A DNA stretch of 64,000 bases, taken from positions 2,976,001-3,040,000 of the forward strand of contig CM030336.1 of assembly GCA_017654855.1 (NCBI GenBank). The letters run 5' to 3'. How positions within the stretch are numbered: position 1 is the first letter of the stretch; every line of letters begins with the position of its first letter. This document shows positions 1 to 39,510 of this stretch, in pieces. The notes beneath the pieces are model-generated. The model did no database searches, was not told the DNA's origin, and was given only the letters and a program-made list of their open reading frames with translations. This stretch comes from Podospora anserina (taxonomy: Eukaryota). The position numbers and the translations under genes are program-made.

Positions 1-1933
1 TCTATTCTCAGCGACGTACTCCCAAACAGACACTGAGCGCCCGCCAGCTATTCGCTCTCGCCGATGGAAGGTGGCTGACAGCTTCATATACGCCCCTTTC
101 CATCTTCGCAGTGTTGCTTTTGGCAGCGGCTCTGACCCTACCACTCGTGTGGTCCCTTGTCGTATCTCCTGAGACTATCGACCGTTGCTAATAGCACGAG
201 CGGAAACTGTTTTGGGTTCCCCGGCTACCTAATGGCACACGATGTCGACCCAGCCGAACTGTCCATGGCCGGACAATACGATGCCGTAGGCAAAGCCTGG
301 GGTTGTTTATTATCTACAAAATTCATACAAGCTGAGCCTCATGTTTGGGGCTTTGAGCACTACAGCCTGGCCGTCCCGAATATTCGTGGTTCCGTTCAGC
401 GAGATAGATACTTTGTTTCAAAGATGCCCATGGGGACGAATACGGGCATGATTCGTGCGCATGCTCTGCGTTTGAATAGCAGCGTTCTGGTTTGCACACA
501 GATTCCCGACGAGGACTTCCCCTTACCTTGCCCTGGACCTAAGCCGTTTGTGTCATGGATGACAGCCAACGAGGGGCTTGATGAATATTTCCTTGTCAAC
601 ATCTGCGCTCCCCGGTAATCGGAGTGGTGAGTTTTTACTTTCCATTCACCCGCTTCTTCTTGGCGATCACACGATGGTAGCTACTAAGAGATTGCTTAAC
701 AGCGAGCCCATGGTCAGCGAGCCCATGGTCAGCGAGCCCATGGTCAGCGAGCCCATGGTCAGCGAGCTGGGACAGGCAGGACATCACAGAACAGCTCTAC
801 ATCCAAGTCAAACACTCCGAAATCGTCAGCAGATCGTTGCAGAACTTTACCACGGTTTGCACCGTCAACATAACGCGTGGCTTTTTGAGCTTCCCAACTT
901 CCGCAAGGACCTTGCCCCGGGTCGCCTGGTAGATTCTGTTCCCTCGAATGGGGAACTCATGAACCCTCTGATAGCTGGTGGTACGACTTGCCAGCACGAA
1001 ATTCAAGCGAGCCATGGAGAAGGTCAACTTAAACCGGGATATGGGAGACCGACCACGAGGCAGTTTATGGCACCTTTGTCGCCCCAGGGCCGCTTTCCAT
1101 CTCAGCTCGAACCCTGGTCGGTCCCGGCAGCTTTTTCCACGAGGCCCGAAGACCTTCCATCTACCCCAACGCAACCTGGTGGGACGCTTACCGCACAATG
1201 TGTACCGGCACAGGTGTTCTCCTCTTTGACGAGTTGTCGCTGAGGTTTCGGCGAGGCTGTCGTGAAGTGGGAGTCGACGGGAACTTCATGGACGAAAGGG
1301 AGGCTGCAAGACGAGTAGCAGACCTGTTGAGAGGATTTTTCAATGGGTTATTTGCGGGGCCGAATATCGGAGAGATCGACACAGCCATTTCATTTGCCAA
1401 TGAAGCAGTGCTTACCATTTGGCCGCGGTCTTCGTTTTCGCCCTATCTCGTCCGCCCTATTTACTACGCCCCCAAGGCCGAGGCAGTCAAGCCACACATC
1501 GGTGGAGGAATTGCAGGCATCGCCGTCATCTCGGTTTTACTTGGCCTGCAGGCCCTTGGCATCACCATCCTTCTCACTCACGCTGTACATCTACAGCTCA
1601 CCCACCTGGACAGAGACTCTTGATTCGTCCGCCATTATCCGCATTGCCAATCAGCTTGGCAGCGACGCGGAACCCATCAGCAAGATGCCTCTGCGGCCCA
1701 TCGGCGGGGTGGAAGACAAGAACGTGCTGGAGCATCTCGGCACCGTCAACGCCATGGTTGGTGTCGCTGACCACACGAAGGAAGTGCCAGACCCAGAAGC
1801 GGCATCTTCCGCTGGATCTGCTCGTGCCCCTGATGAAAATCTCAACAGCGTTAACCTTGATACTGGATTCACACCCGTCTTGGCAGTTGGTGCACCAGGG
1901 GTGATCAACCGCAGAAAGGCCCGCACCTCTTGA
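1..1933 (+). pseudogene. Fungal membrane protein of unknown function, 5'-truncated by the window, with frameshifts
   Basis: One protein can be threaded through several ORFs. NICAP/GNRS needs removal of one C in the run at 610-613. An intron runs 627-702 (GTGAGT...AACAG). The frame then reads QDITEQLYIQV...CTVNITRGF(F)ELPNFR, with one T missing at 882-886. A hydrophobic segment (GIAGIAVISVLLGLQALGITIL) shifts near 1575-1580 into LYIYSSPTWTETLDS and ends at TGA 1931-1933. Confidence 0.6.
700..767 (+). repeat. 15-bp tandem repeat CAGCGAGCCCATGGT, about 4.5 copies
   Basis: Perfect copies start at 700, 715, 730 and 745, with a partial copy at 760. Confidence 0.97.
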
Positions 1934-2160
1934 AGAAAGAACAAAGTCTGGTTTTGTGTAATGAGTGACTAAGGTTTGAAAGTGGCAAAAGAGTTTTGAG
2001 TGTGGTTGCTAAAAGTGCTGCTTTAGTGGATTTTGATTAATGTACAAATCACAAGAGGTAAACAAACACGAAGCTCTAAGGTAGCAAGGTATACAGTTTT
2101 GGGAGATTCATCTCAAATGCGAATGACTCCCACCTATGGTACATGCATCTGTCCAGGTAG

Positions 2161-4058
2161 CTACCCTGAATATGCCCTCCAATCCTTTTCCAAAGTCCTC
2201 CATCCTGTAAGATTGGCCCTGCCATAAGTGGCATCCCCCATCCCAAAGTCAACGCCGCAGATACCCCAGGTCCGTATGGTGAAGGCATATGGCGTGAAAC
2301 TAGCCTGCCACTGCGAGTTGAACTGCGTAATCGATTGACGCTGAAAAAAAAGGATCAACCTCATCAAAGAGCTCTCCAGTCCGCTTAAAATGTGGCCATT
2401 TAGCGACATGACTGAAGGAGGAATGCGCATCATTTTAAAGACTTGGGAAAGGTATTCCTCTCGCGTCCGGTTATCTGTCGCGTTGCCATGGTAGTTGGCC
2501 TTTGTGACAAGGGCTGTAATATCAGGGCTTGGAACTCATGGTTCAATTCAGGCTAATAATCTTCAATGGCCTCGAAGAGCGTGATACCGAAAAGAAGAAG
2601 AAGAGATACAGTCTTGGTGTTTCCAAACGCGTATTTTACCCTCCCTCGCGTGGCCCGTGCCTTTGTTGGCCTCAGGCCATCGCCAAGTCCTTCAATATCC
2701 TACTGGGCCAGTGGGCTTCCTTTGATAACCGCCATGCCTCTGATTGTCTGCCTCACTTTGAACGAGAGGCTCACAACTTGCAGTTACCCCTCCTTGCGGT
2801 GGTATCGACAGTGTTGTTGGTTGTGGTTACAGGTGGGTGGCTTTTGCCGTGTGACAGCCTTCGACTCCCCAAACCAAACCAAATCGTAGTCAGAGTCAGT
2901 GAGATAGCTCGTCTCACAACTGGGATCTATGACCCGAAAAAGAAAAGTCGTCTGGCTGCTGACAGGCTTCTTCCGAATGACGGCTCCATTTCGGTCGAGG
3001 ATATCAGCAATCGCCCCTCCGGATTCATAGCTGTCAGGATGCTGCGCATGCCAATCCCTCAGTGCCAGGTCCAAGTCGTTTCCGTACATGACAACTTGCT
3101 GGGACAGACCCGTATTTGTAGCAGAATCCATGTAACCGCTCATTATCAGGCGGATCACCACAGGCCGGTGTTTTCGAACTACGCCTGTCGAACTGTCCCC
3201 GGTCGACAATTCATCAAACGTCAAGGAAATGGTCGTGGTCCTCCAGATTCCTAGCGACGGCATCTCGTGCCGTGGTAGCAGGTGTTGAAGGAACCAACGG
3301 ATGCGTCCCGCTCCATCGCGATGGCAAGTTTCATCAAAGCTCTCTGCGACGCGAATGCGAGAGCAGTGGATATTGGCATGGAGATGTTTGATGAAAAAAG
3401 GGTTCAAGAAAGTCGCAGGAGAATAGCGATTAAGATTCGCAGATGCTAGAGGTTGTAACGAGTGAAAGATGGCATTAAATGCGTCATATGGTTCGGGATG
3501 CCAGGGTACTACAGCCCGTGAAATGGTGGGCTGGAGCCGACGTAGACCGGAATCTTGAATGTTGGGTTGACGCAAAAATCATCGATATGCAGCCTGAGGT
3601 GTGATCAGATCTCCATTCCAAATAGACACATCTTCAAAGGCCTGACTGAGAATATCGCGTTCTGTGTCGAAGTAGACCGAGTTACTGGGATACAGAAACC
3701 CGATTGACCTGCCTCCGAGCAAGGCTTGATTGCGGAGCCAGCGCGTCGCCTCGGATCGGGCTTTGTGACAGACAAGGAGCAGTACTGAAGGTGCTCTACA
3801 GCAAACCCGCCAGGGTATCGATGGTTTATTCTCGGTCGTCGGGTCCAGAATTGGTGGACGAACGCTGGATGGTTGGCCGACGAGTCGGGCATCCAACAAC
3901 GTGTCGGCGCCCGCTGTTGGCTCATGACGCGGGCTGACGTGGACAAGTCGTGAGCGATCTGGCCCAAGCCGTTTGGCAATGAAAAATTCCCTCCAGATAG
4001 CGACTCTGATCTTAGCGGGAAGTCTGGGGAAGCGGGGGAATGACTGTGAGCTTGTCAT
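2161..4058 (-). pseudogene. 2EXR-family protein, copy 1; in-frame TGA plus solo-LTR insertion
   Basis: N-terminus FPRFPRLPAKIRVAIW and later LLVCHKAR and YFDTERDIL are 2EXR-type motifs. In-frame TGA at 3579-3581. Removing the LTR plus one TSD copy (359 bp) joins ORF 2784-3575 in frame to ORF 2161-2433. Confidence 0.8.
2503..2856. mobile_element. Solo LTR (354 bp) of an LTR retrotransposon, possibly Yeti/repa-like
   Basis: Begins TGTGAC at 2503 and ends GTGACA at 2856 (TG...CA). Flanked by a perfect 5-bp target-site duplication GCCTT at 2498-2502 and 2857-2861. Excision restores the host reading frame. Confidence 0.88.
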
Positions 4059-25849: not shown

Positions 25850-26098
25850 GATCAGCTATGCTGTGGCGATGTGAGACTTCCCCTGTTCGCACTTGTGCTG
25901 CGTCCCCTGGAAGCGCCTAATTGCTGCCCAACCCCGGCGATGTTTGGTGGGATCCACACGACACATTCGTGGTGCCTAGCAACGCCGCTGGAGAGATGTT
26001 CAGCTACAAAACCACACCACGGAAATAAGCCCTCAACCGGCACCATCGAGTCTCCTGCAACATCAAGACACTTGAGTTGAGACTTTGGAGTAAAGAAA

Positions 26099-29000
26099 AT
26101 GGACCAAACCAAAGACCGGCGACGCCTCAAGTTGGAGCCGTCGAAGCTCGGACCCAACGCCAACAATGATGCGAGCTCCCCCAAGACGCCGGACACAGAA
26201 GAAAACAAGCCCAAAGAGACCCCGGTATCCGTATCCCAGCCTGATCTAAGCACACAACACGAAACAGTGGAAAGCGAGGAGTTCAAGCGCCCCAATCTTG
26301 GACTTGGACCTTCCCACGAAGCCCAGGTTGAGGAACGTAGTCTTGAGCGAGAAGCACAGGAGAAGCAGAGGGATCAACCAGATGACGACAACGAATGCAA
26401 AGAAAACCCCATGTCGGATGAAAACCGGGAGTTGATTGATGTGTGGATGCAAACCAAAGATGAAGCGAGAGCCGAGGAAGAGGACAACGTGATGACTCGA
26501 GACAACTACGAGGCCAACTTTAAGGAAGAAGTGGCGCTACACAACCTGTACAAGCATCACTATTTTGACGAACAGTGGCTGCTGTACTCGAAAGAGACAT
26601 CAAAAGACCGCAAAGACGAAGATTGGTTCATTCATTCACCAACTGTGCTGGAGGCAACCGACCCGCAGTACCTCTGCGACATGTGCCGACACGTCGACTT
26701 CACCGTCCTATTTACGCATCGCGATCTGAAGCCTCAGGGGAACAAGGATCCATCCACTGCTTGCATCGAGTTGTATGGACTGTCGAGAGTTCTCAACGAG
26801 AAATCTACGTGTTCATTTTGCAACCTGGTGCGAGAAGCCATTGAGCAACAATGCACTGCTGAAGAACTCGCAAAGGCGAGGCAGACAAAGGCGGGCAAGA
26901 TATCAATCGACATTCTTGATGATGGGCCAGATTGCGCCCTGCGATTGGAGGTTGGCTTCAGCCACTTGGCGACGAAAGTAATTATGCAGAGTATGACATC
27001 CGAGGATGAGCCCTTTGCACTTCAAGGGCTTCCAGTACGCAAGGACGCCGCAGATATCACACGGCTGTGCAACTGGATCCGCACTTGCGAAGGCAGCCAT
27101 TCCAAGCTCCACAGGTCCATTCACGCATTCTCGCCCGAAATGGAGACGCTGCGAGTCATCGACGTTGATGAAGGCTGTCTCGTGACAGTGCCCACGCCGT
27201 GTCGCTATGCTTGCCTTTCCTATGTCTGGGGGAAGAATGCAGCAAGTCTCGTCCATTTGACACTGGAAACAAAGGCAACCCTCGAAAGCCCAGGAATCTT
27301 CAGCAACGGATCAATCGTCATCAGCCAGACCTATCTGGACGCCATCAAGGTTACCAGAGATATTGGACTGCGTTACCTGTGGATTGACGCTCTCTGCATT
27401 GTGCAAGACGACGATGCGGAAAAGGCAATTATTGTCTCGCAAATGGCTGCTGTGTATGGCAACGCCGTCATCAACATCGTTGCCTCCACCAACTTCAGCC
27501 CTGATGGCGGACTTCCGGGGGTGGGTAGCACGCCAAGGGCACGATCCCAGGTAGTTAAACAAATCCAAGGGCTGTCTGTTGGCGCTGTGTTTCATGACTC
27601 CCGTCAGCCATACCACGAGATTGAAGACGCCATCTGGAATTCTCGTGCTTGGACATGCCAGGAGCGTCACCTGTCCCAACGCGCCGTGTACTTTACGGCT
27701 TCTCAGCTCTATTTTACCTGCCCCCATGGGACTGCGTGCGAAGACACAGTTCCCAATTCGACACGGGACCTCAAGCCAACGGTGCCTGTAGATCGGCCAA
27801 AGTTTGAAGAAGCCATATTACCCCTAATGTTCTACATTTGGTCCGACCCGACCCAGACAGAGTTCCCCAACAAGCGCTTCAAGCTAGCTGGTACGGGCAC
27901 AGAATCTGACACCCTGGTATCTACTCGGGAAGAACTGCCTACTCCAACCTATAGAGCAATGCCCGTGGCAGCTTACCGGAGTGGCACTCTTCCCATGGAA
28001 GGGGAGACGCTCTGGAAGACATATCGGGAGGCTGTCAACATGTACACCAAGCGCAAAATGACGTGGCAGAGCGATGTCATCAACGCATTCCAGGGCGTCA
28101 CTGATCTCATTTCTCAGGGGGTGAACACCACCTTCTGGTACGGCATACCCGAGTTTGCCTTTGATCAGGCTCTCTTGTGGTACCCCCAGGAGCCTCTCAC
28201 CCGTCGGACCTATTTGGGAGCCGCCCCGTCCTGGAGCTGGGCTGGATGGGAAGGGCACACAAAGTATCGCGGCCGGGGCTGGCACAATGCCATTGCTGTG
28301 GCACCCTTCAACGTCGTCCACTGGCTTACACATCCGTCTAGTATCGGCACTGTTGTACGGTATCTTTTCGCCCGCGGAGATAGCCCAGAGCGTGTGGCAA
28401 AAATTGTTCAGGCAGCCAAAGAGCAGCCTAAATCCTTGAATTCCTGGGTTCACGCCTTCTTGTATCAACTGGAGGACCTTGACGACGGTTGGAAGGACGA
28501 AAAGGACACCTCGCGCAACGAGCTCTACTTCTCCCATCCCGCCTACCCGGGCCTCCGCTTTACATACCCCATCAACTTGCCGGGGAAACCGTTGCTACCA
28601 CGACATTTACCGGACGGGACACTTCCCTTCACCGCTCGCTCAGTCGAAGCGCGCTTCACCGACATGTCCACAACCGCTCACAAGTCGATACCTGTCGAAG
28701 ACGAGTTTCTGCAGATTGGCCTCAACGATGCGGGCAAATATGGGTCAGGCTCTCGCCGACCGTGGGAGTTTGCTGTCTACCATCAAGGATACCGCGCCGG
28801 GTTCTTGTCTCTCAACGTCCCCCTTTCGTCCATCGACCGTGCGTCGGCTTCGTACAGGCTGGTGGCCATGTCGAGAGACATGGTGCCACAAATCGCCCCG
28901 CCGCCGTGTGGATGGGACCTTTACTGGAACCTGAACCCACGGCGAATGCAGGACAGTGTCTTCTTCGATGAGGAATGGGGACGGCCTGAAGACAGGAGAA

Positions 29001-29242
29001 AGTGGACATTGTTTACTGACTCGGAGCCGGGGAGGGGGCCAGGCAGGGAGAATGGGGATCCGCGCTGGGACCTCGGGCGGTATGAAACACCGGCTATAAA
29101 TGATGTGTACAATGTCTTGTTGTTGGAGAACAAGACTGGCGAGAATGGGGAGTGGTGGGAGGAGAGGATTGGGGTTGGGAAGATTCATGTCGGGGCATTC
29201 TGGATAGCAAGGCCCGTTATTGAGAAGTTTGCTCTGAGGTAG
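26099..29242 (+). CDS. HET-domain protein, 1047 aa, intact
   Basis: LRVIDV, YACLSYVWG, YLWIDALCIVQDD, MAAVYGNA, WNSRAWTCQE, YTKRKMT and PSWSWAGW. CxxC pairs (LCDMC, CSFC) precede the domain. Confidence 0.92.
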   Translation: MDQTKDRRRLKLEPSKLGPNANNDASSPKTPDTEENKPKETPVSVSQPDLSTQHETVESEEFKRPNLGLGPSHEAQVEERSLEREAQEKQRDQPDDDNECKENPMSDENRELIDVWMQTKDEARAEEEDNVMTRDNYEANFKEEVALHNLYKHHYFDEQWLLYSKETSKDRKDEDWFIHSPTVLEATDPQYLCDMCRHVDFTVLFTHRDLKPQGNKDPSTACIELYGLSRVLNEKSTCSFCNLVREAIEQQCTAEELAKARQTKAGKISIDILDDGPDCALRLEVGFSHLATKVIMQSMTSEDEPFALQGLPVRKDAADITRLCNWIRTCEGSHSKLHRSIHAFSPEMETLRVIDVDEGCLVTVPTPCRYACLSYVWGKNAASLVHLTLETKATLESPGIFSNGSIVISQTYLDAIKVTRDIGLRYLWIDALCIVQDDDAEKAIIVSQMAAVYGNAVINIVASTNFSPDGGLPGVGSTPRARSQVVKQIQGLSVGAVFHDSRQPYHEIEDAIWNSRAWTCQERHLSQRAVYFTASQLYFTCPHGTACEDTVPNSTRDLKPTVPVDRPKFEEAILPLMFYIWSDPTQTEFPNKRFKLAGTGTESDTLVSTREELPTPTYRAMPVAAYRSGTLPMEGETLWKTYREAVNMYTKRKMTWQSDVINAFQGVTDLISQGVNTTFWYGIPEFAFDQALLWYPQEPLTRRTYLGAAPSWSWAGWEGHTKYRGRGWHNAIAVAPFNVVHWLTHPSSIGTVVRYLFARGDSPERVAKIVQAAKEQPKSLNSWVHAFLYQLEDLDDGWKDEKDTSRNELYFSHPAYPGLRFTYPINLPGKPLLPRHLPDGTLPFTARSVEARFTDMSTTAHKSIPVEDEFLQIGLNDAGKYGSGSRRPWEFAVYHQGYRAGFLSLNVPLSSIDRASASYRLVAMSRDMVPQIAPPPCGWDLYWNLNPRRMQDSVFFDEEWGRPEDRRKWTLFTDSEPGRGPGRENGDPRWDLGRYETPAINDVYNVLLLENKTGENGEWWEERIGVGKIHVGAFWIARPVIEKFALR

Positions 29243-30620: not shown

Positions 30621-31810
30621 AGACCACCTCGACAGCGGCAAATCTGGGCATTTCATGTCAGTCATTCACCCTGTGGATTCCCGACACAGGGTCAACATAC
30701 GTAGCGGTAGCCGCAAAAACCTCTATCCTCTTCGCATCGCTAAACACGGCAATCACCAGCGCAAACAGCGCCATAAACCCTGCTGTCACCCCTATTCTCG
30801 CATCGGTGCTGTCTAGCCGGTTCAGCACCAGGATTGTCAATACCGGTAAGGTAGACGCAAGAACAGTTGTGATGAGACTGCTTGCTTTGCTGATTCGAGA
30901 AGGACTGTACAAAGTGTGGCCTGTGTCTGTGTCGACAGCCTGGCCGGTGTTGACGCGATGGCCGAGGAGGTGGCGATAAGTTCTGAGAATCTTCTCAGTG
31001 ATGAAAGTGGTACAAGGGTCGGTTTCCTTGACCGGTGCGCTTAGGCAGAGATATGACGAGGGGTTGGGGTCTGCCCAGCTGAAGGCTTCGTTGGACTGGA
31101 GGAAGGGATTGCCGCCTCTGAAGTCGCGTAGCCAGTCTTCGAGGGCAGAGAGTTGGGAAGGTTGAGGGGAGGGAACGGTGTTCATTTGGTGGACTATCAC
31201 GCGTCAATGGTGATCTGAGGGGTTTGTGACAGCGACCCACCTTGGAGTATGAATTCTTCTGGCGTTCAAGATTAGCATCCTGCCGAGGCAATGGGAAAGA
31301 TAAACTCTTCGTACTGTACCCTTTCAGCTTCTCTCTCAACTCCACCATCTTGTGATACTGCATAGTCTTCTTCTCCCGTCAAAGCTTCATATTCTCAGAA
31401 AGTCGCAACGTCGGATCATCCTGGTGGTCAAGCAAACACTGATCCCGATACTCTTGCCCTAGCTCAACAACCTCGGCCTGCAGCGATATAGCGCCAAGAC
31501 ATTCGCTTGATCAAACCTTCTTCAGACTAGCAGCCTCATTCTCACTCCGTCTCATAAAGGTTGCTAACCTGGGATATCCAGGAGGGAGCGGAGGTTGAAA
31601 GTCGTGCACGGTGTGTTTGTTTTGAAGAACAAAGAAACCTGCCTCTGAGAAGAGATGGTGCAGGTGTAAATACGGGTTTGAGGGTTGTCTCAGCTGGTGT
31701 GGTGGGCTGAAGTGTTGGGTTAGGGGCAAGGGGACCGCCTCGACGGCCATATCAGAGGCCCCCCGCCGTCCGCGGACCACACAAGAGACCAGTTGAGTCC
31801 AGGACCCCAT
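30583..31810 (-). pseudogene. DUF6594-type membrane protein, degenerate
   Basis: GYPRLATFM, RRFDQAN, SLQAEVVEL and ELREKLKGY motifs with frameshifts near 31490-31525 and in-frame TGA at 31379-31381. C-terminal TM helices. Intron 30700-30644 joins AATAT to FAAVEVVFIGS, with stop at 30583-30585. Confidence 0.72.
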
Positions 31811-32051: not shown

Positions 32052-33499
32052 ATGCCCCAAGAAGACCAATTCTGGCTCATCAGTCCCATCACTCTAGTCC
32101 TGTTGGTCTCCTCCGTCATCACCCTCATGACAATATTCGTCGCAATGGCCGCCTTACTTGCCGACTTTGCCCAAAAGGTAGAGCGAGCCGAATCCCACTT
32201 TCAGGCACAGCAGACCGAGTATTTCTGTTTTGCAGCGCGTTCTACGAGAATGCGAGCACATTCTTGACCGACCCGTTGACGCTCCAGACCAAGTTTTGGA
32301 GGCCTTGGAGACCTGCCGACGCCAAGGGGCAAATTATGATGAGCACTCTTTCAAGCTACAACGGAACTCTACCAAGTTGAAGAGATTCCCAATGGGTCAG
32401 AATTTGCGAATCTATTACAATCAGACCGAGCTGGACAAGTCTCTGGCCGCATATAAGGGAAGTGTATTGCTTCTGAGAGACTTGTGCTCTGAGTAAGTGA
32501 ACAAGAAGCCAAGTCACCGGGGAATAGCAGTGAAACTTTCTGATAAGCGACTTGACAGAATTAAGCTTCGACAGCAGCTGGTTGAAATGAGGTAAGTACA
32601 GGCAAGACTCTACCAAAAGTATACATGAAATTTGAGTTTCTAACACGCCACACAGCGCCGCCATGGCAAAACTATCAGCCCTAGCAATTCCAGACCTCGG
32701 GCAGAATGACTCCGATTCTGCATACCGAGTATCCCTAGACGATGATCCAGCCCCTCTAATGTCCGGCGCACTTACCACTAAGAACCCAAACAGTCTTGCA
32801 CTCGTTCATCAGACCAACCACTTGAAACTCGTCGAACAAGTGTGGACAAGAGGCTTCGGCCAGCTCTCCCAAGAGAAATACAACATCGATGCTGCCATCC
32901 GAATCATAATCGACCAGACCCACGCCAAACATCCTGGCCAAGCATTCAAGTACTATCCCGCCGGAGTCAAATTAGACAGCGCATCCGACCTCGACTTGGT
33001 TTCCGTCTCCTATCTCCGCCAAGCCAATGCACTAGAGCACGTCACTCTTGTGCCCATTCCAGAAGACACCCAGATTGCCATCAGGGGTGGGTAACGGCTC
33101 ACTGACCCCAACCCATAGGGTGTTACTCAAGTGGTGCGGGCATGGAGAGAGCAAGATACACGAGGGTTGGTTTGACCTGGTCGATTTCCCAGACATTGAC
33201 ATTTTGTTGGGGACCGCATCGTTGGAGAAGATTGCTGTTGCAAGAGTGGCGCGTGCTTGGCCGATTATCGGGAGGACGAAGCCCAAGGCGATATCCGAGA
33301 GAGAGTATGCTCAGGAGGAAGAGAGTTTGGCACGAGAGAGGGAGACCAAATTGCCGAGTTTGAGAGTAAGCTGGCGGAGAGGAGGAGGGATCAACTAGCG
33401 TTGGGGCGGGCAGATACAATTGTTTCTGATGAAATTAGCACCCATCAGAAAAGGCAAGATGTAGATTTAGAGTTGGAGAATAACAGTGTCGACCCTTAG
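32052..33499 (+). pseudogene. HeLo-like helical domain fused to a retropepsin-like aspartic protease domain (2 introns, 3 frameshifts)
   Basis: ATG at 32052. Canonical introns 32493-32558 and 32592-32655 keep frame. Protease motifs VKLDSASDLDLVS, IRG(V)GNG and IDILLG. Frameshifts at about 32229, 33088 and 33350. Confidence 0.62.
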
Positions 33500-33616
33500 A
33501 CGCTGTCACGGCTCTTCATTACATGTAGCGCTCCTTCAACACACACAAACATAATACCCCTTTTTTGCCCCTCGACCAGCTTTTCCCCTATCTAGTGTCT
33601 TTGCCCCCTCGAGATA

Positions 33617-35269
33617 TCAAGGCCGGCATCTTACCGATCCCCAAGCATCATTTTGCGTCCCAAAGTTATTAACCCCTGGGTATATCAGCGGGAAGTACGT
33701 CCCCGAGTCTCTCTCGCAGTTATCACCCCTAAACGCTCCCGTTAGCATCACAACAAGTTCAAACCAGCAGAACCAAGTGTACTCACCTAAACAACACACA
33801 CCTCCCCATATCCGGCCCAGCAGACCTAACTCTCTTATAAATGTCAGTCCCCGCCAAACTGACACACTTCTCCGCGTGCCCAACCCTGATATTCTCGCAA
33901 CTCCCACCCCATTGAACCTCAGGACAAAGATACAGCCACGTCGACGTAGTCAAAACAGGCGGCACAGCAGGAGTGTAAGAACTAGCCGGGTACTTCGCCG
34001 TCCCATAAACCTCAATCCTCCACCCCGCTCCACACGTTTCTCCCCCGTCACCCGCGCAAGGCATATCACACTGCCCATCAGCCACCAACAACCCCGACCC
34101 AGGCTGGGAGTTGCCGCAAAAGCATTCGGTGCTGTATTCGACTCCCGCATAGAAATATCCCGCCGTCTCACAGGCAGAAATACACTTCTCCGTTGTCATA
34201 CCACCGGTAATGCTACTGATCTGATGCGGCAGAACGCGAGGAGAGTCAGAATCAACAAAACACCCCACCCTCGTCTCAAAGATATCGTTCTGCGCTCCTG
34301 GGAAAAAGCCCATCTTGGAGTTATACGGCGGTGTGACGTCCCCCGGGGTGACAACATTGTTGCCCGTCCGCTGATGCCAGGCGATCATCTGTTTTGGACC
34401 TTTGACGCAAGCAGAGGGGTTATTCGCACAATACACTGGGGGCTGGGCAATGCCCAACCGACGAACTGACGTGCTCCCTGGAACGTGGCAGCGGAAGTTT
34501 TGCATGTACATGTTTGGCTCGCCGCATCCGTCGGGCACCCAGAGCCAGGCGCAGTAGCATTGGCCTGGGGCGCAGGGGGGGAGGTCGGCGGGGATGGGGT
34601 AGTCGACTAGGCGTTTCCAGGGGGTGCTTCACATAAACTGATTAGATGACTGTGTTGCGAAAGGAGAGCGGTGAACTTACTTGGGGGCGACAGAGATGAC
34701 AACCAAATTCTCCATATTCACCTTCGCCAAGTTGGAATTGTACGAAATCGCCAGCGCAGTGCCTGTGGCCCTGGTCTCGTTCTGGGTATGTAACGGACCA
34801 CCAAACCCGTCAGGGTTGTTAACCAGACAGCCCTCTCCTGTGCTGGGGCCGGTCCAGTTCACAGGGTGGTCCCGTCCGTCTGTCCAGTCTGTCGTGAGAT
34901 CACCATTGTAGGAGAGAGTGGTGAAGGCGCGGTTCTCGGCCATTTCACCAGTAAAGACACCTCCTGCAGGTAGAGCGAGGGACTGTCCGCTGGGGGGGCC
35001 CACGACGTTACAGCCTCGGTCCGCTTGCATCCACCACTGCTCCTTGGTGAGGTTATAGAGGGGGTTGACGACGAGGTTGGTGTTTTGATCGTCCACTGCT
35101 GGGTTGTTGCCGCCCTGAAATCTGGATGTCAGTCAAGTTGAGAGCCAGAAAGATAAACGACAAATATCGATGGACGACTTACACGACAATGCATACCCGG
35201 CGCAAAGAGCGCGTGGTGTGCTGTCGCCCCCGTGGCCAGGGCCGCGAAAAGCTTTGCGTGGCGCATCAT
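33617..35269 (-). CDS. Secreted AA14-like lytic polysaccharide monooxygenase + WSC domain + C-terminal crystallin-like module (3 introns)
   Basis: Signal peptide [17 protein letters not shown] is followed directly by His. [30 protein letters not shown] and NMYM match the AA14 pattern. WSC motifs [28 protein letters not shown] and [12 protein letters not shown]. Confidence 0.8.
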
Positions 35270-38561: not shown

Positions 38562-39510
38562 ATGATGATGCCATCACGCCCACTACCCACAGCAATACAA
38601 GCAGACCCCGAGAGGGGTCCATCCAGCCCCAAAGCACATAGATCACGATCAAACCCCATGCCCCTCTCACCAGTCGACAGTTCCCTCACCCGTCTCGCAA
38701 CACTGGAGAGAGCGGCACGCTCACAGCAGCAATCCCGGACGGCAGCCGAAACGCCCGACGAAATCACCGCCCTCGAGGTTGTCTATAGATACAGCATCCT
38801 CTCCTCCCGCATCAAAGTCCTCCGTCACGAGATCATACACAAGGTTGAGTCAGCCCAATCTCTCATCGACGTGGCCATGCCGGAGGAATTGAGGCGAGAT
38901 CTAGATCGGTACAGTATATTCAACCTACCTTGCTTTGCCTTCCCGCTCTCCATCCTCCTGCCCAAGCCTGACAACTTCCTTACCCTTTTCAGCAACCGCA
39001 CTGCGAGACTACGCCTTCTTTCGTCAGGAGGGTAAAGATCTCTTCCGGTCATTCCAGACCCAGTCTATCCTCGCCACTATGAAAGCCCTTGACAACCCTG
39101 CAGCCGCCACCCCCCAACCGGAACTCGCCGTGGATGATCCCCTGAGTATCATCACCAGAGAGCTGAGGCTGGCTTTGACGCAAAGCACTTCAGGGCTGTC
39201 AAAATACAAAAAGTCAAAGGATCAGAAAATGCTATGGCAGCGCTTCTTTATGGCTTTGGGTGGCGGACTGGCCCTCGTGGGCCCGATGCTCATCATGGTG
39301 CGCAATCCGAGTGAAGGCGTCGCCATCATCACGACATCGTGCTGTGTTTTGGGCGTGGCAGTTATTTTGGCTTTGTTCATGAACGATTCCCATCCAAAAG
39401 ATGTCGTCGCATGCACGGCAGCCTATGCGGCAGTGCTAGTTGTGTTTGTTGGTGCTGGTGGCGGTTCCCAGACTGGGGAAGGTCAAAGTGACGGTGCTTC
39501 CACTTCATGA
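38562..39510 (+). CDS. DUF6594-type membrane protein (1 intron), apparently intact
   Basis: LDRY|TTALRDY across the intron. C-terminal RFFMALGGGLALVGPMLIM and VVACTAAYAAVLVVFVG signature. Confidence 0.78.

Follow-up and report, generated by a model that had tools for sequence, protein, structure and literature searches.

Evidence for a transcribed pseudogene in Podospora anserina from an ascomycete gene family that joins a helical N-terminal domain to a retropepsin fold

Results

Structure of the interrupted gene

A window of 64,000 nucleotides from Podospora anserina (contig CM030336.1, forward strand, positions 2,976,001 to 3,040,000) carries an interrupted gene on its plus strand, at window positions 32052–33499. 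An earlier note, made from the letters alone, had described this interval as a broken allele encoding a HeLo-like, cell-death-type domain fused to a retropepsin-like protease. We modelled the gene by aligning the window to an intact homologue, P0001 from Cercophora samala. The reconstructed protein has about 435 amino acids, close to the 430 or so estimated in the note, and is assembled from six in-frame pieces once two introns are removed and three small frameshifts (+1, −2 and −1) are corrected. The pieces, A to F, correspond to P0001 residues 1–56, 58–147, 148–157, 159–302, 304–388 and 390–435; they are identical to P0001 at 368 of 431 aligned residues (85.4%) and contain no in-frame stop. 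The introns and frameshifts proposed in the note were recovered by this alignment, but not its count of five open reading frames (ORFs), since the interval holds six stop-to-stop ORFs. All the motifs it had picked out (LADFAQKVERAE, LQRVLREC, LEALETC, ELDKSLAAYK, LDSAS, IRG/GNG and DILLG) were found in the listed frames.

Piece A (32052–32219; 53 of 56 residues identical to P0001) consists of the ATG at 32052 and the first 56 codons and, judged by hydropathy, encodes a transmembrane-like helix at the N-terminus and the beginning of helix 1. It ends at frameshift 1 (+1; 32220–32223), where four nucleotides replace one codon of the intact relatives. Piece B (32224–32492; 78/90 identical) supplies the remainder of a three-helix bundle domain and ends in LLRDLCSE, a motif whose conservation was read from an alignment of N domains, A2. 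Intron 1 (32493–32558; 66 nucleotides, GT..AG) is followed by a micro-exon of 33 nucleotides (32559–32591) encoding IKLRQQLVEM, which is identical to P0001 at 10 of 10 residues and is flanked on both sides by spliced joints. Intron 2 (32592–32655; 64 nucleotides, GT..AG) has a CTAAC branch sequence. Piece D (32656–33088; 117/144 identical) completes helix 3 and continues through a disordered linker and a further helix into the retropepsin-fold domain, of which it covers the first half, including the DSAS motif at 32975–32986 with its Asp codon at 32975–32977. The aligned codons of pieces C and D span 32560–32589 and 32657–33088, and those of piece B end at 32492/3. Frameshift 2 (−2; 33089), in which one nucleotide replaces a codon, falls within the flap motif IRG-V-GNG. 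Piece E (33090–33344; 75/85 identical) contains the second half of the retropepsin-fold domain, with DILLG at 33198–33212, then the basic motif GRTKPKA and the start of a charged helix. After frameshift 3 (−1; 33345–33346), where two nucleotides replace one codon, piece F (33347–33496; 35/46 identical) encodes the charged C-terminal helix and the tail, and is followed by a TAG stop (33497–33499). A Pfam scan of the window's own pieces gave nothing useful, their domains being split by the frame breaks.

Transcription of the locus and loss of the reading frame

Twenty listed public runs from one organism contain the stretch wholly or partly. Contigs from four of the 24 runs listed were compared with it: X7 (study P3), X16 and X17 (both study P5) and X18 (study P6), all distinct from the window's assembly. 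X7 is near-identical to the window and possibly related to its source. No run is on record as RNA, and the RNA nature of X16 and X17 is taken from their spliced contigs. The joint 32492→32559, which removes intron 1, was present in X17 contigs, and the joint of the 64-nucleotide intron in contigs of both X16 and X17; the DNA-like run X7 had neither. These joints show that both introns are spliced out and that the locus is transcribed. One RNA-like contig, X16 record 2 (32187–32551), reads from the exon into unspliced intron 1, so that some transcripts keep this intron. In the 3′ untranslated region, X7 and X16 carry a CTT insertion behind position 33533 relative to the window.

All three frameshifts were bridged by contigs with no gaps or differing letters: the first by X16 record 2, X18 record 9 and X7, the second by X16 record 4, X17 record 8, X18 record 11 and X7, and the third by X17 record 8 and X7. 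Two other contigs, X17 record 6 at the first site and X16 record 4 at the third, reach the site without bridging it by 31 letters. Neighbouring ORFs of 1053 amino acids (HET), 618 amino acids (HhH-GPD/NUDIX) and 405 amino acids (2-oxoglutarate (2OG) oxygenase) are unbroken and have strong Pfam matches, which argues against a generally error-prone assembly. Because the introns are spliced and the frameshifts recur unchanged in contigs of three further studies, we regard the locus as a transcribed pseudogene and not as an assembly error, in agreement with the note's view that the allele is broken. As the frame is lost after codon 56, the mRNA encodes only a peptide of about 70 residues, made up of the hydrophobic helix and a short out-of-frame tail.

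A 58-nucleotide GT..AG interval at 32178–32235 was considered as a rescue intron. Its removal would restore the frame over the first break and delete 19 conserved codons. It was rejected: X18 record 9 and X16 records 1 and 2 are colinear through the interval and show no joint.

Two database entries bear on the state of the gene in close relatives. P0040, an ORF of 67 amino acids, is 97% identical to the window's last frame, its out-of-frame upstream part included, which suggests that another record shares frameshift 3. P0004, a fragment of 151 amino acids truncated at both ends, is 90–95% identical and reads IRGVGNG across the second site, with no break there. Together these entries hint at decay in close relatives.

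Intact relatives and the exon layout of the family

The 145-residue piece of the window at 32657–33094 matches P0001 (435 amino acids; E 1.1e-67, 81% identity) and also P0002, a protein of 391 amino acids from Triangularia verruculosa. Both are intact and annotated 'hypothetical protein', and both contain the two halves in one ORF; the note's concern that no genome might do so is settled by these proteins. A phmmer search with P0001 against 1.84 billion representatives returned 76 proteins at E<=1e-3, 26 of them at <=1e-10 and 4 at <=1e-30. When these 76 were combined with P0001 and P0002 and analysed with phmmer locally, 61 of the 78 proteins had the C domain and 32 the N domain, with 16 having both. 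A word-index search with full-length P0001 returned only P0001 and P0002, and one with N-domain alignment A2 for longer proteins returned none, which is weak evidence. All family members scanned score below the Pfam cut-offs.

Many entries with a single domain end where an exon ends. Many N-domain-only entries (6 of 15 in alignment A2) stop exactly at ...LLRD-x-C-S/T-E, the codon of the window's first intron, where the donor GAG|TAAGT creates an in-frame stop. Many C-domain-only entries stop right after R-P-R-K-T-K/R-G. Six metagenome loci were retrieved with a C-domain alignment, A4. L004 and L006 run off their contigs, leaving four that could be assessed (L001, L002, L003 and L005); L001 is cut on its 5′ side and retains the last 77 residues of the N-domain exon. 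In three of the four (L001, L002 and L003) this exon lies directly upstream on the same strand and ends in LLRDACSE, and the position of intron 1 is the same as in the window. The donor begins at the last G of the GAG codon in L001 and L002 (GAG|TAAGT and GAG|TGAGT), and L003 has GAGCAAGT at this position, possibly a GC donor. In all three loci the micro-exon follows (IRLRQQLVE in L003); next come an exon that opens with SAAMARL/H and the protease domain, and, beyond another intron behind RPRKTxG, the exon that encodes the charged tail. The micro-exon (I-K/R-L-R-Q-Q-L-V-E) and both flanking intron positions are thus shared between the window and relatives that are 44–48% identical. As the same exon layout recurs in L001–L003, the two-domain architecture is, on the sequences compared, the normal form of the family, and the stand-alone database entries are largely exon fragments produced by gene calling.

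The C-terminal half has a retropepsin fold

An AlphaFold2 model of P0001, built on a 77-sequence alignment, has a mean predicted local distance difference test (pLDDT) score of 81.9, with values of about 85–97 over residues 250–350. It places a beta domain at residues 234–343, with helices on both sides. A Foldseek search of the PDB with this model gave 29 matches at E<=1e-3. Among the 17 matches listed are the Ddi1 RVP domains of yeast, human, Leishmania and Toxoplasma (best 4z2z_B, E 3.9e-6, probability 1.00), the proteases of equine infectious anaemia virus (EIAV) and Rous sarcoma virus (RSV), and RloA, a bacterial periplasmic aspartic peptidase. Just above E 1e-3 follow the proteases of Mason-Pfizer monkey virus (M-PMV), human immunodeficiency virus 1 (HIV-1) and feline immunodeficiency virus (FIV), Rickettsia APRc and a second RloA, and weakly the lobes of plasmepsins. 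VIA-align, which is independent of Foldseek, ranked EIAV protease first (Z 10.0, root-mean-square deviation 3.2, 104/104 residues, model residues 224–357), ahead of T. gondii Ddi1 (Z 9.7) and RSV protease (Z 9.6). ESM Atlas neighbours of P0001 residues 205–412 belong to RVP_2, gag-asp_proteas, Asp_protease_2 and Ddi1 clusters, and sub-threshold Pfam matches in the same region among 76 relatives were to PF13650 (Asp_protease_2) in 12 and to PF13975 in 6. The retropepsin fold assigned to this half by the note is borne out by the Foldseek, VIA-align and ESM Atlas results and, as far as the fold goes, is well supported.

The sequence hallmarks of retropepsins are only partly present in the window. 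The flap, IRG(V)GNG, and the second hallmark, DILLGTAS, are there, but the catalytic D-T/S-G motif is not; in its place the window and its clade (P0001–P0004) have L-D-S-A-S, in which Asp and Ser are present and Gly is changed to Ala. Across 61 relatives the second hallmark has the consensus PFDxLLxS and the Gly-rich flap G-x-n-G is conserved. Of the 61 aligned C domains, 45 retain D[TS]G[SCA], as DTGS (27), DTGC (10), DTGA (7) or DSGS (1). Five others have DTAS, four have DSAS (the window's clade), six have another motif, and one row has a gap at this position. From these motifs the family as a whole looks catalytically competent. From what is known of aspartic proteases in general, loss of the Gly probably weakens or abolishes catalysis in the window's clade, where activity may have been weakened before the gene died.

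A basic R-x-K-x-K motif is conserved after the protease domain. The charged tail that the note had described corresponds to a charged helix at residues 369–410 of the P0001 model.

The N-terminal half is a helical bundle with a hydrophobic first helix

The P0001 model contains three long helices (residues 12–71, 79–108 and 113–168) with pLDDT above 90. Three long helices were also predicted for P0027, a relative of 145 amino acids (pLDDT 90.4, predicted template modelling score 0.72). The first 25–30 residues or so of helix 1 protrude beyond the bundle, which spans residues 41–169, and are transmembrane-like. Over the first ~35 residues, the highest Kyte-Doolittle average for a 19-residue stretch (KD19) is at least 1.6 in 25 of 28 N-domain carriers, and uncharged runs in those 25 extend over 21–38 residues; P0001 has a KD19 of 2.48 and a run of 32. 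The hydrophobic stretch usually comes after an acidic MDP- start and is followed by K/R.

PF17111 matched 12 of the 78 proteins, always at the N-terminus and in register from profile positions 1–10 to about 129; it is the only Pfam family that matches the N domain repeatedly. The best match was to P0061 (24.2 bits, E 2.6e-5); P0001 scored 13.6 bits (E 0.044, residues 18–138). In the fungal NOD-like receptor (NLR) literature, PF17111, now PigL_N, is the Helo_like_N or HeLo-like family (PMC9815663). ESM Atlas neighbours of residues 1–150 (score 0.91) are small ascomycete proteins, in clusters with PF17111 in 10–18% of members; one neighbouring cluster has SesA in 13%. Coiled-coil (CC) domains of plant resistosomes appear among many unrelated rows of the fold searches (VIA-align Z 9.2–9.4 for 9h2l; Foldseek E 1.7 for 9cc8). 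The kinship with HeLo-like and SesA domains read by the note from the helical pattern finds weak support in the in-register PF17111 matches and the hydrophobic first helix, but not in the scores, which stay below threshold, or in the fold matches, which are generic. On balance, distant homology of the N domain to HeLo-like domains appears probable to us, short of a firm assignment.

In alignment A2 the N domain (about 32236–32492 in the window) has three near-invariant cysteines, in the E-C motif of helix 1, in helix 2 and in LLRDLCSE of helix 3. These could make up a site for metal binding, redox chemistry or lipidation.

Genomic neighbourhood

The ORFs scanned nearby comprise MutY-like, HET, 2OG oxygenase, DUF6594, lytic polysaccharide monooxygenase (LPMO) AA14-WSC and second DUF6594 genes. 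About 3 kb upstream of the pseudogene is an uninterrupted HET-domain ORF of 1053 amino acids (26081–29242, plus strand; PF06985, E 5.9e-32). Since such genes abound in these fungi, we treat its presence as weak context. Two DUF6594 (PF20237) ORFs occur within 8 kb, at 30658–31203 (minus strand) and 38905–39510 (plus strand), one of them divergent and directly upstream of the pseudogene. Directly downstream, on the opposite strand, is an intron-split LPMO AA14 + WSC gene (33783–35132).

Comparison with known systems

The best structural match of the C domain is the RVP domain of Ddi1/DDI2 (4z2z, 4rgh, 3s8i and 2i1a; Foldseek E 3.9e-6 to 6.7e-6 over about 117 columns), which is also a cellular, non-transposon retropepsin placed after a helical region. 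P0001 and P0002, however, have no UBL or UBA Pfam match at E<=10, and the C domain is therefore not a Ddi1 orthologue. Further differences are a sequence identity of 11–20% with no sequence-level match in the PDB, the N-terminal transmembrane-like helix of the present family and the DSAS motif of the window's clade. The fold is also shared with bacterial membrane-anchored retropepsins (APRc of Rickettsia, 5c9b, Foldseek E 1.9e-3; RloA, 9g58, 8.8e-4). APRc and SpoIIGA are membrane-attached or periplasmic. APRc, RloA and SpoIIGA differ from the present family in being bacterial, in having another N-terminal architecture and in lacking sequence similarity to it.

With HeLo-like domains (HELL, PF17111; HELLP) and the HeLo domain of HET-S (2WVO), the N domain shares a hydrophobic helix at the N-terminus with a helical bundle after it. 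According to a 2025 review, the extreme N-terminal helix is required for membrane targeting and death (PMC12881547). The present family differs in its sub-cut-off scores, its three long predicted helices and the lack of a specific fold match to HET-s or MLKL; moreover, the known effectors are triggered by amyloid templating or NLR oligomerization, not by a protease in cis. The likeness to fungal gasdermins paired with proteases (het-Q1/het-Q2; S8 and CHAT protease NLRs) is conceptual: there, too, a membrane executioner is under proteolytic control (PMC9815663 and PMC12881547). In those systems the protease is separate and serine or caspase-like, and the executioner is a gasdermin, whereas in the present family an aspartic retropepsin is fused in cis to a helical domain and cleavage is only proposed.

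In the literature searched, as far as its text was available, we found no description of a HeLo-like domain combined with an aspartic protease or retropepsin; supplements might list such architectures. The available text of the survey of fungal NLR effectors does not mention 'aspartic', 'aspartyl' or 'retropepsin' (PMC9815663), and that of the 2025 review does not mention 'aspartic' or 'aspartyl' (PMC12881547). The literature naming both Helo_like_N and Asp_protease_2 consisted of a domain-count list only. Within that scope, the fusion is a new combination of domains of known kinds.

Discussion

Taken as a whole, the locus is best explained as a unitary pseudogene, still transcribed, that belongs to a gene family conserved in ascomycetes, an explanation to which we assign a probability of about three in four. 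The fusion is real and has intact orthologues, the HeLo-like assignment is uncertain, the catalytic motif is degenerate in the window's clade, and the allele present here is dead.

Two other accounts of the locus were weighed against this explanation. The gene might still be functional if splicing, programmed frameshifting or RNA editing overcame its breaks, or if the breaks were mere sequencing errors. The locus is indeed transcribed, its two real introns are correctly spliced, there are no in-frame stops within the pieces, and the GT..AG interval at 32178–32235 could restore the frame over the first break; but X18 record 9 and X16 records 1 and 2 run unspliced through that interval, RNA-like and DNA-like contigs from three studies show no indel differences at the three sites, and the neighbouring long ORFs are intact. 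Three unlike shifts (+1, −2 and −1) would moreover require three separate recoding events, and A-to-I editing is unable to repair frameshifts. We consider a functional gene here highly improbable, and give equally little credence to the idea that the retropepsin part is a relic of a long terminal repeat (LTR) retrotransposon that came to lie beside helical ORFs by accident. That idea draws on the nearest ESM Atlas clusters and PDB matches, which include retrotransposon and retroviral proteases. It is opposed by the lack of a second copy in the 64-kb window (0 of 104 high-scoring segment pairs fell outside the locus), by the absence of reverse transcriptase, integrase or gag among the flanking ORFs scanned, by the recurrence of the same two-domain exon layout and intron positions in relatives 44–48% identical, and by the presence of both domains in annotated proteins of two other genera. 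With no second copy in the window, no pol genes among the ORFs scanned and conserved host introns, the locus is not a transposon relic.

The order of elements in the intact relatives (transmembrane-like helix, three-helix bundle ending in LLRDLCSE, disordered linker, retropepsin-fold domain, basic R-x-K-x-K motif and long charged helix) allows a mechanism to be proposed. The first helix would sit in the membrane with the bulk of the protein in the cytosol, as the K/R after the helix would dictate under the positive-inside rule. In retropepsins, two copies pair into one active site, and by analogy the protease domain would pair with a second copy to the same end. The dimer could then cleave in cis or in trans, most plausibly within the disordered linker (about residues 170–210) or at the basic motif, and such a cleavage would control the action of the membrane-bound helical head. 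A role of the head as a HeLo-like, membrane-damaging death effector, in any form, is a tentative proposition, which we hold to be possible rather than probable. The full scheme, as put forward in the note, in which the intact members are self-contained switches whose HeLo-like head is restrained until the fused retropepsin dimerizes and cuts the protein, we consider unlikely.

Several observations weigh against a HeLo-like domain joined to an active retropepsin. On the N-terminal side, all PF17111 scores lie below the gathering cut-off of 27.2 bits, the best Foldseek match of the isolated N domain has E 0.67, VIA-align finds only generic bundles for it (Z <= 10.1, a range that is uninformative for helical models, which require about 13), and neither HET-s HeLo nor MLKL is among the top 50 rows listed of the fold searches. 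Given its extreme hydrophobicity, the first helix may serve simply as a permanent anchor instead of a killing helix that is exposed under certain conditions. On the C-terminal side, a Pfam scan of this half of P0001 and P0002 gave no match; PF13650 reaches at best 23.5 bits among the relatives, short of its cut-off of 24.3, and no match to the C domain attains a gathering cut-off. Searches of PDB sequences with P0001 and with profiles A4 and A2 gave no meaningful matches. The motif Gly, or more, is missing from 15 of the 61 aligned C domains (in addition to the one gap row), and some family members may, from this loss, be inactive. There was no NLR partner among the seven neighbouring ORFs scanned, and no amyloid motif was seen, none having been searched for. 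Finally, the N domain is missing from L005, one of the four loci that could be assessed, where another ORF lies upstream.

L005 itself (1840–3155) holds a near-copy of the L002 protease exon with no N-domain exon; its unrelated upstream ORF carries a PSWSW motif. It may be a truncated paralogue.

Much of this evidence would also fit an ordinary membrane-tethered processing protease with no role in death, in which the helix is a permanent anchor, the bundle a stalk or regulatory element, and the dimer cuts other proteins, in the manner of the bacterial membrane-anchored retropepsins APRc and SpoIIGA and of eukaryotic Ddi1. The length and strong hydrophobicity of the first helix (KD19 of at least 1.6 in 25/28 carriers, uncharged runs of 21–38), the purely generic helical bundles found by the fold searches with the N domain, the presence of APRc (5c9b), RloA (9g58) and Ddi1 among the structural neighbours of the C domain and the lack of an NLR neighbour among the ORFs scanned all speak for it. 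A mere stalk, however, would hardly need the conserved motifs of the N domain (E-C, C and LLRDLCSE), nor does a tethered protease account for the in-register PF17111 matches in 12 of 78 proteins with no other Pfam family recurring, or for the Atlas neighbours that carry PF17111 or SesA. We regard such a protease as a serious candidate for what the intact proteins are, about as likely as a HeLo-like effector in any form, though still short of an even chance. The window's copy would be a pseudogene on this account too.

The copy in the window is dead and adds only a dated loss. It belonged to an ascomycete family that lacks annotation; the fold of one half of the protein is clear, the family has a conserved micro-exon of 33 nucleotides, and many of its database entries are really exon fragments. 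If the intact members do act as self-contained switches, they would be executioners gated by an aspartic protease in cis, a new class of fungal regulated-cell-death module that would stand beside the amyloid-triggered HeLo/HELL proteins and the protease-triggered gasdermins, and the decay of the gene in this window would be an example of the turnover of immune or allorecognition genes. Functioning in this way, a single chain would link the logic of HeLo/HELL proteins with that of gasdermin–protease pairs, in a family for which intact orthologues are available.

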